Positions 3,862 through 12,030 of a DNA stretch of 20,000 nt are shown here, in pieces. The stretch comes from an uncultured virus (IMG/VR IMGVR_UViG_3300001765_000054). Lineage: Duplodnaviria > Heunggongvirae > Uroviricota > Caudoviricetes. The position numbers were made by a program, and so were the translations under genes. Where the stretch lies: the IMG/VR virus record IMGVR_UViG_3300001765_000054, positions 45,902 to 65,901 of that record. One strand, written 5' to 3'. Numbering within the stretch: the first letter of the stretch is position 1; each line of letters begins with the position of its first letter. The notes under the pieces are model-generated. The model searched no databases. It was not told the origin of the DNA and was given only the letters and a program-made list of their open reading frames with translations.

Positions 3862-3909
3862 TTTGGATACTCCTGGTTTGAATGTAGAACTTAGAACTTA
3901 GAAGTTTGG

Positions 3910-7489: not shown

Positions 7490-7680
7490 CAAAGCACCAT
7501 TTTGGTGCATTTTTCAGTGTAATAGCGTAATGAAAAAGTCCCTCTATAACCCCTCTATCCCTCTTTCTTACTCTTCTTCTATATTACTCTACTCTAAATT
7601 AAAGTTAGAAAAGAGAAGTAGTAGTATAGGTAGGGTATATATGATTCCTATATAGGGTTTCAGGCTCTGGTGTAACGGCA
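7490..7680. other. candidate replication origin region
   Basis: Non-coding and AT-rich. A C/T tract (~7539-7595) faces an A/G tract (~7601-7636); small inverted repeat GCACCA-TTT-TGGTGC at 7494-7508; directly upstream of the primase-helicase. Confidence 0.45.
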
Positions 7681-7789: not shown

Positions 7790-8941
7790 TTAGTCGATGG
7801 AGCAAGCTTTACGTTTTTGGCCACGCTCATGCTCGATGGAACCTTGGGTCCGAACCAGCTCAAGTTCGCAACTGGAGTTGTACTTAACTCGGATGACGTC
7901 GTTGAGTTTCTGGGTGCAGAGGTATGCAGCTTCAGCGATGTGTGCGAAGGCGATTGGTTGACGGGCATACTTTTTTGCCACGTCTACTTTGCATCGTTCA
8001 ATTACTCCAACCGCGAAGGTTGTAAGTTGTTTCTGTTTGACCTCGGGGAGGTCGTTGAATTTGGCTGAAGCAGGTGCGTGCTTTGAGGCAGCGCGAAGGA
8101 TTTCGAGGATGGTGGGCATGAGTCTCTTATTAGACTCTATACGCTGTGTGGATGCAGCAGTGTCTGCTTCCATATACGCATCGTAAAAACGTTGCTCCTT
8201 GTTTTCGATGGTGGTGTTGTACTCGAGTTCGGCCTGCTCGACTTTAGCTTTCGCTGATACCCATGCGGCGTTGAGATTAGAGAATTCATCTGCGTAAATA
8301 AGAGCTGCGTTATCTCCTGTGTAAATAGGGTCGTGCTCGTCTGGCAGATTATCAAGTGCCTTTGCTGCTTTGTCCAACGCGCCGCGTGCCTTGACCAACG
8401 TGTTCATGAGTCCATCGGTTAACGTGCTACGCCCCGCAGCTTCGAGCTGAGCCATCTTGCGATAATTGGCACGTGTGCCTACGTTGGGCTTTTGCGCCTT
8501 TTCTTGCTCCATTTGCTCGCGTAGTGATTTTGACTTGTAGTCGCGATCGTCTGCGCCTGCTGCTGCATACGCATCGTCGTGCCATTGTGTGCGCAGGGCT
8601 AACAACGTAGCTAATGTTTTTTCATCGCCATCGAAATCGAAATGGCTTGAGCGTGAGAGTTCCTCGCCAATGTCCTGACAGAAGCCATCGAAGTCGGTGA
8701 CTTCTTCGGGATCGATATCCTTCCAGCGTTCGAACAAGACTGTTCGAGCTTGGCTAATGCACGAGCTGTCGATCATCCAGCACATGCTTTCGAGAACTCT
8801 CGAATGCAGCGCAGGCTGTTCGGCCATGGTCTCGTCAAGGAGGTCAATGATGTCGAACATTGTGTAGCTGGTCGCGACTTGTTTGACTGCAGCCTCGATG
8901 GTGCCAGTTGCAAGTTTGTGGGTTTTGGTTTTGGTAGCCAT
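7790..8941 (-). CDS. hypothetical alpha-helical protein (383 aa)
   Basis: Long ORF with AGGAAA SD and a downstream terminator; no recognised family. Confidence 0.85.
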   Translation of the reverse strand: MATKTKTHKLATGTIEAAVKQVATSYTMFDIIDLLDETMAEQPALHSRVLESMCWMIDSSCISQARTVLFERWKDIDPEEVTDFDGFCQDIGEELSRSSHFDFDGDEKTLATLLALRTQWHDDAYAAAGADDRDYKSKSLREQMEQEKAQKPNVGTRANYRKMAQLEAAGRSTLTDGLMNTLVKARGALDKAAKALDNLPDEHDPIYTGDNAALIYADEFSNLNAAWVSAKAKVEQAELEYNTTIENKEQRFYDAYMEADTAASTQRIESNKRLMPTILEILRAASKHAPASAKFNDLPEVKQKQLTTFAVGVIERCKVDVAKKYARQPIAFAHIAEAAYLCTQKLNDVIRVKYNSSCELELVRTQGSIEHERGQKRKACSID

Positions 8942-8965
8942 GGTAGTTTCCTAGGTTAGGGTTAT

Positions 8966-9015
8966 GAAGCGCGAGACGCTTCCCGATGAGCACTGAGATC
9001 AATGCCCATCAGGAA
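8966..9015 (-). repeat. structured intergenic motif type II, copy 1
   Basis: + strand GAAGCG-CGAGA-CGCTTC overlapping a long stem TTCCCGATGAGCA...TGCCCATCAGGAA; the mismatches become G.U pairs on the - strand. Confidence 0.6.
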
Positions 9016-9021
9016 TCGAAC

Positions 9022-9270
9022 TTAGACGTTAGATTCATCCGTTGAGAAAAAGCTGTACTCTTCAGCGAGGTAACGTTGCCGAGATTGAGGTTTAGGGATT
9101 TTGTGCTGAGGCACGTCTTGTTCAGGAAGAGCTTTAAACAGATCGCGATGCTTTTGCATAAAGCTGTAAGCCTCTGCTGCTTTGGCTGCATCGGTGACGT
9201 TGGGGAAGCAGGGGAATTCGTAGTATTTGGACATGGTGGTGTTTAAGGTTGTAGAAGCAAAGCGCTTCAT
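9022..9270 (-). CDS. hypothetical protein (82 aa; alternative start at 9234, 70 aa)
   Basis: ORF fills the gap in the early cluster; start uncertain. Confidence 0.6.
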   Translation of the reverse strand: MKRFASTTLNTTMSKYYEFPCFPNVTDAAKAAEAYSFMQKHRDLFKALPEQDVPQHKIPKPQSRQRYLAEEYSFFSTDESNV

Positions 9271-9306
9271 ACTGCTGTCTCATAACCAACAGTGTTGAAG
9301 AGTTTT

Positions 9307-9360
9307 GGCACAGATAGTGCTTGTATGCACCATAACAGTGCATACTACAGTTTCGATAGC
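9307..9360 (-). repeat. structured intergenic motif type III, copy 1
   Basis: - strand GCTATCGAAACTGTAGTA...GCACTATCTGTGCC, with an additional 8-bp hairpin GTATGCAC/GTGCATAC at 9323-9345. Confidence 0.45.
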
Positions 9361-9368
9361 AAATCGAT

Positions 9369-9653
9369 TTAAACGAGCTTAGAGCTCATATCGTAGTATC
9401 CGGCTACATAGGTGCCATCCTCGACGTGGCCGACCAGCCAGCGGGCCGCTGATAGCGTCAGTGAGCACGTTAAAGCGCTGATGCTCGCGATCATCAAACC
9501 AGAAAAGGAACCCCAGTGAATGAGAATCATTCCTATTAAGATAATCGTGTCGATGAGCACCGGATTTGACAGGATGTGCATACGCCAAGACCAAGGCAAT
9601 TTGGTCAATGTCCATAGCAGGCCAGCGCCTACTATGATGCCCATCTCAATCAC
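9369..9653 (-). CDS. membrane protein (~94 aa)
   Basis: GTG at 9653 overlaps the upstream stop (GTGA); several hydrophobic segments (IIVGAGLLWTL, LIDTIILIGMILIHWG, LMIASISALTCSLTL). Confidence 0.75.
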   Translation of the reverse strand: MIEMGIIVGAGLLWTLTKLPWSWRMHILSNPVLIDTIILIGMILIHWGSFSGLMIASISALTCSLTLSAARWLVGHVEDGTYVAGYYDMSSKLV

Positions 9654-10090
9654 GCTACGCTCAAAGTTGGAGTTACGAAGCGCGAAGCTACCCAGCCGTA
9701 GCCCATGATCGACAGCGTAGTTGCGAAGTGCGCAGCGATAAGCGAGATGAGCCAACCAACGATGGTTATGACCCAGTGCATAAACGCCCAGCCGGTAAAC
9801 GTAACCGCAGCGGCAGAAGCCGAAGCGATAAGCGGTGCAGCAAGAACGCCAGCACCGACAGCGATGGCGATAGTTGCAAGACCTTTGATCACAGGTTTGA
9901 CCCAAGCGTGCTCAGGCGTAGGTGTAGCTGCAACAGGTGCAGCTTTTTTCTCGGCTTTCTTTTCAGCCTTGCGAGCTTTGTGCTCAGCACGAGCTTGCTC
10001 GAGTTTTTGCTCAGTAGTGAGTTCAGCCTCGACAGCCTCAACGTCGATAACGGTTTCGGCTGCGGTGGATTTGTTGGTACGAGTTGCCAT
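9650..10090 (-). CDS. membrane protein (146 aa), charged N-terminus and two hydrophobic segments
   Basis: AAGGAAA SD; Ala-rich; 'GLATIAIAVGAGVLAAPLIA' and 'WVITIVGWLISLIAA'. Confidence 0.8.
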   Translation of the reverse strand: MATRTNKSTAAETVIDVEAVEAELTTEQKLEQARAEHKARKAEKKAEKKAAPVAATPTPEHAWVKPVIKGLATIAIAVGAGVLAAPLIASASAAAVTFTGWAFMHWVITIVGWLISLIAAHFATTLSIMGYGWVASRFVTPTLSVA

Positions 10091-10119
10091 GATGTTTCCT
10101 TAGAAAGGTTAAGTTGTTT

Positions 10120-10166
10120 GAAGCGGACGCTTCGCTCTGAACACGGAGAACCATGCTCAGAGCGAA
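10120..10166 (-). repeat. structured intergenic motif type II, copy 2
   Basis: + strand GAAGCG-GA-CGCTTC overlapping stem TTCGCTCTGA...TCAGAGCGAA (10 perfect bp, extended by G.U pairs on the - strand). Confidence 0.6.
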
Positions 10167-10179
10167 ACTCGCAAAGGGG

Positions 10180-10210
10180 GACTGACTTAGGGCCGGTACT
10201 CCGGCCCTAA
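10180..10210. repeat. hairpin motif type I, copy 1
   Basis: GACTGAC-TTAGGGCCGG-TACT-CCGGCCCTAA (perfect 10-bp stem). Confidence 0.85.
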
Positions 10211-10236
10211 TGTTCCTAACCCCGATACGCGAGGAG

Positions 10237-10284
10237 GGCACCGATAAATGCATAGACGACGAGCGTTGCTATGACTTCGATAGC
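10237..10284 (-). repeat. structured intergenic motif type III, copy 2
   Basis: - strand GCTATCGAAGTCATAGCA...GCATTTATCGGTGCC immediately after the stop at 10286. Confidence 0.45.
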
Positions 10285-10285
10285 G

Positions 10286-10684
10286 TTACGCATGTGCCAC
10301 CTCGGCAGCAGGTGTTACGCAGACTGACGTGAACTGGTTGAAGCCAGTACAACGCTTCTCCCAGACGCTGCCGTCGCGCTTTGTGAATTGCGTGACGCGC
10401 GATGCGCTTGCAGATTTGCGGATGGTTTTAACCGGTACGCGGACATCGGCGCCGCACATGAACGCGTACTCGTCGATCGCGGCGTTGCGCGCTTCACCGA
10501 CTACACGTGCGTGGTCGTTAGCCTCGACCACGGAGTCTTCAAGTGTTGGCGCAGGTGCTGCCGCTGTCGCTGCTACTGTTGCTTCAGCGAGCTGACGCTT
10601 AAGCTCGACAATGTGTGCATTCAGCACGTCGATGGTGGTGTTGGCTGCAGCGAGCTGAGCGGTGAGGGTGAGAGGCTTGGCCAT
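10286..10684 (-). CDS. hypothetical protein (132 aa), N-terminal coiled coil
   Basis: AGGAG SD; Ala-rich heptad N-terminus. Confidence 0.8.
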   Translation of the reverse strand: MAKPLTLTAQLAAANTTIDVLNAHIVELKRQLAEATVAATAAAPAPTLEDSVVEANDHARVVGEARNAAIDEYAFMCGADVRVPVKTIRKSASASRVTQFTKRDGSVWEKRCTGFNQFTSVCVTPAAEVAHA

Positions 10685-10703
10685 GATAGGCTCCTAAGTT
10701 AGA

Positions 10704-10753
10704 TGAACGAACCACAAGGGGTGACTGACCTAGCCCCGGTACTCCGGGGCTGG
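10704..10753. repeat. hairpin motif type I, copy 2
   Basis: TGAACGAACCACA-N6-GACTGAC-CTAGCCCCGG-TACT-CCGGGGCTGG. Confidence 0.85.
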
Positions 10754-10762
10754 TGTGCGTGC

Positions 10763-11077
10763 TTATGCAGCTTTGGCTTTGGGGATGAAGGACGATGCCC
10801 AGCCGGTGAAGGCGCCGACCTTGGCGCCGAGCGCTGCGAACGTAGACTCGTCAAGCTTGAAGCTGAGGAAGATGTGGATGCACAGCATGAGGATGGCGAC
10901 AGCAAGGGCTACAGCGATGAACATGCAGATACCGCCGAACACAGAGGCACAGCCCCAGGCAGCGGCGATGCCGCAGCCCCACGAGATGAGCCGACCGCAC
11001 CAGGCGATGACCTTGTGACCACGCTCGACGTCAGCGTCGTGGGTTGTGGATGCGTCGATAGTTGAAGAGAAAGACAT
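10763..11077 (-). CDS. membrane protein (104 aa)
   Basis: Start reassigned to ATG 11077 (MSFSSTIDAS...) behind an AGGAG SD at 11085-11089; hydrophobic 'GGICMFIAVALAVAILMLCIHIFL'. Confidence 0.8.
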   Translation of the reverse strand: MSFSSTIDASTTHDADVERGHKVIAWCGRLISWGCGIAAAWGCASVFGGICMFIAVALAVAILMLCIHIFLSFKLDESTFAALGAKVGAFTGWASSFIPKAKAA

Positions 11078-11097
11078 GAGATAACTCCTGAGTTGAT

Positions 11098-11147
11098 TGA
11101 ACGAACCACAGAAGATGACTGATGCAGGCGCGGTACTCCGCGCCTGC
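11098..11147. repeat. hairpin motif type I, copy 3
   Basis: TGAACGAACCACA-N6-GACTGAT-GCAGGCGCGG-TACT-CCGCGCCTGC (perfect 10-bp stem). Confidence 0.85.
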
Positions 11148-11246
11148 CCTGCACGGGTGGGACCCCTACTACGGGTTGAATGCCGAATCCGAAGTGGGTG
11201 GCTCTTACCGAGGAGCCCGGGGGAGGGACCCACGCCCCCGATTCTC

Positions 11247-11335
11247 AGAAAAAATTCTAAATTTTTAGCCCTCAGCTCTTAACCCCAGCCCTACGTGATT
11301 AACCCAACGCCCTTAGAAAATTTTCTAAATTTTTA
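11247..11335. repeat. 21-bp AT-rich direct repeat pair upstream of terS (candidate packaging/terminus signal)
   Basis: AGAAAAAATTCTAAATTTTTA (11247-11267) and AGAAAATTTTCTAAATTTTTA (11315-11335); perfect 16-bp palindrome TTAGAAAATTTTCTAA at 11313-11328. Confidence 0.7.
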
Positions 11336-11356
11336 CCCCAAAACTATCGTCTAACC

Positions 11357-11367
11357 TCTAAGTTAGA
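11357..11367. promoter_or_regulatory. TCTAA-N-TTAGA palindrome 9 nt before the terS ATG
   Basis: TCTAAGTTAGA; the same motif is at 2831 and 16116. Confidence 0.55.
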
Positions 11368-11376
11368 ATCACGACC

Positions 11377-12030
11377 ATGACCGCCCGAATGAAAAATCCG
11401 TCGCCAATGGCGCTAAAGAAGCGCGACCTCGCCCCCACCCCGCCTACCCGAGAGAATAAAAAGCGCGGCGCACAAGCCGTACCTGCTATAGCCGAAGCCC
11501 GCAAGTACATCGACACCAGCACCAACGCGGGAGCTGCCTCGATCAGCCCGGATAAGCCTCTCACCGAGAAGCAGAAACAGTTTGTGAAGTTCTGGGCACA
11601 AGGTGAGTCGATCCAGACCGCTTCGCTCAGAGCGGGGTACAACGATGGAGCATCGATTGCCTACCGCATGACTATGATGCCCAACATCCTCAAGCTCAAA
11701 GCTCAGTACGAAGCGGAATGGATTGAAGAGAACCAGATGACGCGCAAGCGGGTGATGGACGGGATGCTTGAAGCTATCGAGATGGCCAAGCTGATGAGCG
11801 AACCCGCGACGATGGTTGCTGGGTGGCGTGAAGTGGGCAAACTCTGCGGTTACTACGCACCCGTCGAGTCCCGTGTGAGGGTCGATGTGACCGGCAACGT
11901 GGTCATTGACAAGATGAACAGCATGACCGACGCCGAGCTGCTGAAGATCATCACAACAGGCACCACCAGAGCACTTGAGTATGTCGAAGACATCACCAAC
12001 GAAGCCGACCAAGGCACCGACGCCGGCTGA
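11377..12030 (+). CDS. terS: terminase small subunit
   Basis: 'LTEKQKQFV......S...A..RAGY' HTH pattern and 'MTDAEL' C-terminus; directly upstream of terL. Confidence 0.85.
   Translation: MTARMKNPSPMALKKRDLAPTPPTRENKKRGAQAVPAIAEARKYIDTSTNAGAASISPDKPLTEKQKQFVKFWAQGESIQTASLRAGYNDGASIAYRMTMMPNILKLKAQYEAEWIEENQMTRKRVMDGMLEAIEMAKLMSEPATMVAGWREVGKLCGYYAPVESRVRVDVTGNVVIDKMNSMTDAELLKIITTGTTRALEYVEDITNEADQGTDAG

Follow-up and report, generated by a model that had tools for sequence, protein, structure and literature searches.

The locus examined here raises a question of reading: three hairpins stand one ahead of each of the first three early genes of a podophage, and it is asked what they signal and what recognizes them. 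Judged from sequence comparisons, they are copies of a signal that stands before the first genes throughout the KPP25-like phages and that most likely marks the start of the earliest messages.

The hairpins lie in a 20,000-nucleotide stretch of DNA that was analyzed as a whole (the window; positions 45,902 to 65,901 of the record) and that ends a genome of 65,901 bases (65.9 kb). The phage is a podophage related to Pseudomonas phage KPP25 (Kochitakasuvirus): its portal and primase-helicase are 44% and 39% identical, respectively, to KPP25 / phiR18 proteins, and its genome layout matches that of KPP25 and is common to the members of the genus (KPP25, phiR18, A1002, and CRPAP1904). The distance is too great for the window phage to be placed within Kochitakasuvirus. 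Late genes run rightwards from the gene for the terminase small subunit (terS) and early genes run leftwards (Table 1). Because the hairpins head the leftward early genes 1, 2, and 3, the + strand is the template strand. Searches of Pfam and PHROG with early gene 1 gave no match. Upstream of the first hairpin is a CCGAA direct repeat, conserved in the family, KPP25 included, that is probably a terminus or packaging signal. In 12 of 33 cases, contigs end within the 500 nt ahead of terS or a short way into the gene, versus 2 of 16 downstream (control), a weak hint that the genome end lies between the array and terS, although assembly breaks could give the same picture.

Elsewhere in the genome, a ParA-like ATPase gene, a 67-aa gene, and an HTH replication-initiator-like gene (genome positions 25037-26402; L002 14038-15403) sit together between the late and middle arms, in the fashion of phage-plasmids. 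An AT-rich stretch with purine/pyrimidine skew, recognized by eye, is present in two similar copies, at genome positions 23850-23990 and window positions 7540-7665; one copy lies between the gene for a 383-aa protein and the primase gene (a likely origin) and the other after the giant virion gene. At genome positions 34763-41768, DNA polymerase A (1160 aa) and an SNF2 helicase (1096 aa) greatly exceed their KPP25 counterparts in length and may hold inteins. The genome also carries several HNH and GIY-YIG genes.

The first-pass annotation had described the three hairpins, with an invariant loop and an adjoining GACTGA, from the letters alone. All three are present as described, the gene map places one before each of early genes 1 to 3, GACTGA adjoins every stem in the window, and the single noncanonical pair is indeed a T.G on the + strand. 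The element TGAACGAACCACA, reported as shared by two copies, was recovered at 10704 and 11098, 6 nt from GACTGA. The distance to the ATG in these two copies, first given as 46-47 nt, is corrected to 46 and 45 nt; in the third copy (A3), the ATG is 96 nt from the stem, and the leader holds a second, different element. The word "invariant" is right within this genome and too strong for the relatives, in which the loop reads TACY and GACTGA is relaxed to about ATGNNNGA. A terminator scan lists none of the three copies, in agreement with the earlier view that they lack a U-tract and are not intrinsic terminators. No Rfam family reached its gathering threshold, and the five weak matches in 8500-11500 were all at least 23 bits below it.

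Within the genome, the hairpins are confined to the array. CGGTACTCCG is matched exactly at three places in the 65,901 bases, each of them in the array, and a covariance model found only A1, A2, and A3 in the window and L001-L003, which together make up the whole genome. None of 100 dimer-shuffled versions of the window yielded three same-loop hairpins of at least 8 bp (maximum, 1).

Table 1. Coordinates of the hairpin array, its genes and neighboring signals (window positions, except where KPP25 is named)
Feature	Position	Strand	Description
Hairpin A1	11124..11147		Leads the array in transcription order; perfect stem of 10 bp; + (template) loop TACT, - (coding) loop AGTA
Hairpin A2	10730..10753		10-bp stem, one T.G pair on + strand; 9 nt after gene 1 stop
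Hairpin A3	10187..10210		10-bp perfect stem
A-poor spacer after A1	11107..11123	-	Predicted RNA 5' end G 11107 (alternative 11109), from family geometry
Spacer after A2	10713..10729	-	Predicted RNA 5' end G 10713 (alternative 10715), from family geometry
Spacer after A3	10170..10186	-	Predicted RNA 5' end G 10170 or 10172, from family geometry
Type B element, gene 3 leader	10120..10162	-	Imperfect stem with coding-strand G-U pairs, and GAAGC...GCTTC mini-hairpin
Terminase small subunit (terS)	11377..12030	+	Divergent from early genes
Early gene 1	10763..11077	-	104 aa, hydrophobic, family F8 (7 loci)
Early gene 2	10286..10684	-	132 aa, family F5 (11 loci)
Hydrophobic ORF, 25 codons	10216..10293	-	Overlaps gene 2 stop, ends 5 nt before A3; read from sequence
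Early gene 3	9650..10090	-	146 aa, family F4 (15 loci)
383-aa all-helical protein	7790-8941	-	Last of early cluster; diverged homologues in 50 loci
CCGAAT-CCGAAG direct repeat	11183..11198		Upstream of first hairpin
Two A/T-tract palindromes	11250..11334		Between hairpin array and terS; kept in relatives
Middle/late promoter-like motif TCTAACCTCTAAGTTAGAAT	11350..11369	+	Ends 7 nt before terS ATG
TCTAnnnTCTAAGTTAGAAT motif sites	11350-11369 (+), 16109 (+), 9015-9033 (-), 3895-3909 (-), 4894 (-), 2840 (-)		Sites in window
KPP25 predicted start G	24055, 24356, 24898		KPP25; predicted from element geometry, or 2 nt off

At least 11 further contigs have hairpins with the same loop (G-RGTA-C) ahead of early genes, one to five copies in each, as found by pattern and protein scans; the stem there is 11 bp long. 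Five loci (L009, L058, L083, L086, and L165) repeat the sequence of the window and were left out as support. In 18 copies from six contigs, 96% of cells are paired, compared with at most 48.5% in slid controls. Eight of the 11 pairs have changed on both sides and none shows a one-sided (G-U) change, which bears out the claim that the structure is under selection. None of 500 shuffles scored as high in pairing, a test inflated by the relatedness of the copies, which also differ from each other inside each genome. The same-loop copies share a TCRS-CATC box exactly 11 nt after the loop. Singletons of the first pattern scan were discarded as chance matches (0 of 25 form a hairpin), as were most single-copy matches of the second, among which only L080 and one 9-bp case (L067/L076) form a hairpin.

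Beyond this lineage, we surveyed 111 loci with terS and upstream DNA, among which some near-duplicates remain. They contain 250 perfect GC-rich hairpins of at least 8 bp, versus 14-18 in three shuffles, and 123 of the 250, distributed over 66 of the 111 loci, KPP25 included, stand 35-60 nt before an SD-ATG. The loops are lineage specific (CAAG, RGTA, TGAA, TGGC, TTC, AAACACC, and others), and one sub-lineage has N4's own TTC/GAA loop, with GAA on the template. Conservation of the loop and of GACTGA, as looked for in relatives, does not extend across the family. The loop class tracks terS (22 of 31) and the family of the 383-aa protein (23 of 31) alike (chance, 0.25), and no partner gene stands out for that reason. 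For measurements on the single-stem hairpins (type A), we used a hand-curated set of 102 elements, from which 17 of 119 rows had been dropped, 6 of them G-U-bearing hairpins like type B. We therefore also selected elements by an objective rule, which retained 109 repeated leader hairpins from 49 loci; 96 of these have no second stem next to them.

These elements also share features downstream of the stem. The spacer is poor in A (3-14% per position through position 17 past the stem base), and the tail after the stem is 43% T and 8% A. A pyrimidine-G step (Y|G) peaks 16-17 nt past the stem base, in 24 and 29 of 61 elements with short stems and in 15 and 14 of 35 with long stems, and then falls. 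Counted from the loop instead, the peak lies at 25 for short stems and at 27 for long ones; because it is constant from the base and shifts from the loop, the ruler starts at the stem base. Small GC mini-hairpins follow downstream, and 19 of 33 begin at 16-17, versus 0.2-0.3 per position in shuffles. From its geometry, a small hairpin beginning at a Y|G step of constant position reads best as the 5' end of an mRNA. The three elements of KPP25 have 9-bp stems, a GGA or GGGA loop, and the G at 14, 14, and 13, and otherwise the same anatomy as those of the window.

Given this anatomy, we lean towards the hypothesis that the element is an early promoter read as a DNA hairpin, and that its reader is the host polymerase with, probably, an injected factor. 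Specificity would be set by the DNA hairpin or a cruciform arm and not by a -35/-10 pair. On the coding strand, such a promoter would consist of a GC-rich, nearly perfect stem of 8-12 bp, a lineage-specific loop, an A-poor and T-rich spacer of 15-16 nt, and Y|G, the G of which would be +1, the transcription start; past it would often come a 5'-terminal mini-hairpin, with the SD and ATG mostly 22-50 nt on. The hairpin would form in DNA, leaning to the template strand, and the array end of the genome would enter the cell first. Host core RNA polymerase loaded by the injected phage factor is the presumed reader; alternatively, it may be a polymerase too divergent to detect. With its 15-16 nt, the gap would suit the footprint of an enzyme of multi-subunit size better than the 4 nt of N4 would.

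Using a sigma70 matrix of E. coli, from which the hosts may differ, we found no site of 10 bits or more in the 33 intervals from terS to the first hairpin or in 102 element windows, and the elements show no positional -10 peak. Fifty early regions (121,567 bases) gave no hits, versus 7-12 in shuffles, with the proviso that words resembling promoters are underrepresented in coding DNA in any case. Under the same scoring, T7 and phiKMV gave three hits each, and N4 and KPP25 gave none. Given the E. coli matrix and the coding-DNA bias, the lack of sigma70-type promoters is support and not proof. Two readings made by eye, one that took the downstream sequence as boxA-like and one in terms of sigma54, failed across lineages.

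Later genes appear to be served differently. A phage-specific motif, TCTAnnnTCTAAGTTAGAAT, stands shortly before middle and late genes, with 23 matches genome-wide versus 3-8 in shuffles, and precedes terS in 29 of the 111 loci. It ends in a -10-like TAGAAT, whose distance of 7 nt from the terS ATG suggests a leaderless message. The motif's makeup also suggests an activator-dependent host promoter, at which host polymerase and a phage activator would act later in infection.

Whether the hairpin works as DNA or as RNA bears directly on an alternative that we consider unlikely, in which one unrecognized promoter near the genome end gives a long early transcript and a hairpin-guided nuclease cuts it at Y|G, 15-16 nt downstream. 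Each gene would thereby gain its own protected 5' end, as it does between the early genes of T7, where RNase III is the processing enzyme. The hairpins are indeed placed as T7 sites are, past a stop codon and before the next SD; cutting would explain Y|G and the mini-hairpin equally well, and internal copies would need no special reader. However, the T7 sites fold with long lower stems, and the flanks here form none (pairing of the native flanks exceeds that of swapped flanks in only 31 of 102 elements). G-U pairs, moreover, are nearly absent: 795 of 816 core pairs of the type A stems in the curated set (17 of 119 rows dropped) are Watson-Crick and 4 are G-U, while in type B hairpins from the same early regions 11 of 12 mismatches are G-U on the coding strand. 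Nor was a promoter found upstream.

The mismatches that do occur in type A stems also carry a strand preference. Under the objective rule, non-Watson-Crick pairs contain G on the template strand in a ratio of 16:4 (P = 0.012; 13:3 by loci), opposite to the background mismatch-strand ratio of 221:272. The bias weakens to 18:8 (P = 0.08) once hairpins with a second stem are kept, the loci are related, and the G-U contrast of type A with two-stem hairpins has P = 0.08. Neither DNA energy parameters (27:32) nor an RNA energy model shows a strand preference. Loops of the forms cGNNAg and gCNNGc are reportedly among those stable in DNA. When DNA-stable loops (GNA, cGNNAg, and gCNNGc), classes defined after the data were seen, are counted, 37 loci have them on the template strand and 10 on the coding strand; the window lineage (GGTA) and KPP25 (GGA), with a purine loop on the coding strand, are exceptions. 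Among 102 elements, only 2 have a UUCG or GNRA loop on the RNA strand. G.T is described as stabilizing and C.T as destabilizing in DNA (PMC3061078). Taken together, the pairing leans moderately to DNA over RNA.

The type B element looks, from its sequence, like an RNA motif, loosely similar to put. Its mini-hairpin comes 2-3 nt after the stem, and we counted 14 copies in 11 loci; further copies in the window lie at 9254-9293 and 8966-9010 on the - strand.

Less probable still is a terminator, attenuator, or antitermination cassette (PeSL-, nut-, or put-like), in which hairpin and U-rich tail would make the host polymerase pause or stop unless a lineage-specific factor binds the loop. The T-rich, A-poor tail is of the kind expected, 20 of 102 elements having at least five T in the first 8 nt; some members, including the third of KPP25, resemble plain terminators, and internal copies stand directly past stop codons. 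Against it, the first element has no gene upstream and thus nothing to stop, and the window lineage has no U-tract. The consensus for polymerase pausing includes a G at -10. Here, G makes up 12-13% at the pause-consensus positions and is depleted ten bases upstream of Y|G. The known examples also differ: PeSLs carry consensus sigma70 boxes (PMC2839356), which are missing here, and put sites consist of two imperfect stems and follow host promoters (PMC9378689). Finally, we regard as very improbable that the hairpins are DNA-handling sites without a direct role in transcription, whether as cassette recombination points or as signals for ejection, packaging, or priming. In favor, they are perfect palindromes, the gene content between them varies, genes 1 and 2 are found in either order (3:2), and contig ends gather around the array. 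Against it, the order is constant in 19 of 21 family pairs, no integrase was detected among 74 proteins scanned with Pfam, and the fixed Y|G, mini-hairpin, and SD distance would be left unexplained. The cassette alternative raised in the first-pass annotation is weakened by this mostly fixed order, and what recombination takes place at the repeats may be a by-product. An integron attC array was rejected on the same order and integrase results.

A promoter read as a DNA hairpin needs a reader, and the earlier suggestion of a phage-encoded polymerase gained no support from searches by family, motif, profile, and fold. Pfam (74 predicted proteins) and PHROG (50) revealed no RNA polymerase and no sigma factor. 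The T7-like family PF00940 had no match in this genome or in three relatives; T7 and N4 controls were positive in the relatives' run, controls were silent in the PF00940 and PF21867 searches of the window's own genome, and N4 vRNAP itself is detected by PF00940 only at E = 0.007. The two-barrel family PF00623 is absent from all five genomes searched (14 of 14 controls positive). One of five genomes tested, not that of the window phage, has a sigma70-family gene; it encodes 313 aa and is found in the genome of L014 (G002:C1:4291-4509).

The first-pass annotation had also proposed to look for a very large virion protein, and three Cys-free ejection proteins of 554, 914, and 2722 aa were found. 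For the conserved last 872 aa of the largest (residues 1851-2722), the predicted fold has a pLDDT of 76 and resembles a zincin and the ejectosome protein of PhiM1 (Foldseek E = 0.0026; Z 8.6, rmsd 6.2, 256 aligned); the model points to a zincin plus a gp16-like ejection protein fold. Polymerase catalytic motifs are present in 0-1 of 140 homologues of the giant protein. Profile comparison gave T7 RNAP at 0.2%, and with N4-like vRNAP only the N-terminal glycine-rich segment aligns; an Atlas search with residues 480-1200 returned no usable match. Residues about 1190-1330 of the giant protein (L002 4649-12817) form a small accessory region shared with an N4-like vRNAP homologue, P0012, in which it lies outside the polymerase domain.

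The 383-aa protein at the end of the early cluster has a confidently predicted fold (pLDDT 88.9), for which fold searches gave coiled-coil matches only; comparisons with PDB, PHROG, Atlas, and sigma70 were blank, an outcome still compatible with membership of a family. The string HFDFDGD in this protein was considered as a polymerase active site and dropped, as it is not conserved across the 50-member family. The protein is a candidate for the middle/late activator.

The hairpin or cruciform promoter first suggested for this locus thus stands in part: selection on the structure, the position at the early unit next to terS, the absence of sigma70 promoters, the fixed putative 5' end, and the DNA-like pairing speak for it; against it, no phage RNA polymerase was found, and loop, stem, and probably spacing depart from the N4 geometry. 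More tentatively, and with more doubt than confidence, we conjecture that the whole family starts early transcription at DNA-hairpin promoters without a known RNA polymerase of its own. An injected protein (for example, the giant ejection protein through its conserved but unannotated residues 480-1200) would bind the lineage-specific hairpin and load host core in place of sigma70, or would itself be a polymerase of an undescribed fold.

If true, a sigma-independent promoter read by structure would amount to a new way of starting transcription and might serve as an orthogonal tool for expression, in a widespread podophage family that combines an N4-like layout with another geometry and has no detectable polymerase or sigma70 promoter. 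The main texts searched on KPP25 and Kochitakasuvirus, in the portions available, mention neither a promoter nor an RNA polymerase, and the available portion of one of them mentions no hairpin; a brief earlier mention, such as in the original KPP25 paper, is possible. Broader literature searches returned nothing on promoters of the KPP25-like family, and the family is not among the six P. aeruginosa phage clades named in the accessible part of a transcript-mapping study. The cultured Pseudomonas aeruginosa members (KPP25, phiR18, and A1002) make the base-level predictions testable.

Among known systems, the T7 RNase III sites resemble the element in that each gene boundary carries a single hairpin ahead of the SD, and differ in that here there is no lower stem, almost no G-U, and no strong host promoter upstream. 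The PeSLs of T4-type phages (PMC2839356, PMC4122927) are likewise repeated intergenic stem-loops before small variable early genes and may be recombination points, but they hold consensus sigma70 boxes and act as terminators, while 0 of 102 elements here reach 10 bits. The put RNA of HK022 (PMC9378689) is also a cis element of early leaders for which the distance to a downstream site matters (21 nt), and its two adjacent stems recall type B; it is about 70 nt long, imperfect, and downstream of host promoters, in contrast to the single perfect hairpin of type A.

A further close comparison is N4, the standard case of a promoter read by its shape, in a phage that brings its own giant polymerase. 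There are few hairpins, with a conserved loop and a freely covarying stem, one per first early gene and about 50 nt from the ATG, as in N4 P1-P3 (PMC4496689). The coding strand is T-rich just past the stem, there is no sigma70 promoter, and the virion has the three Cys-free ejection proteins. The N4 promoters are hairpins from -17 to +1 with a 3-nt loop, the template strand of which is read by vRNAP (PMC4496689, PMC3715699). Early transcription in N4 resists rifampicin and depends on gyrase and SSB. The N4 stem is 5-7 bp with a GNA triloop on the template, versus 8-12 bp and lineage-specific loops of 3-8 nt in the family; the window has TACT on the template and a stem of 10-11 bp, and GAA on the template is confined to one related sub-lineage. 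The +1 of N4 is five nt from the stem base, versus a distance of 16-17 nt predicted here from sequence, and the giant virion protein here has no detected T7-like polymerase domain, nor is there an RNAP II. The element is N4-like in position and logic, yet it is not of the N4 type, from which it departs in loop, in stem, and probably in spacing.
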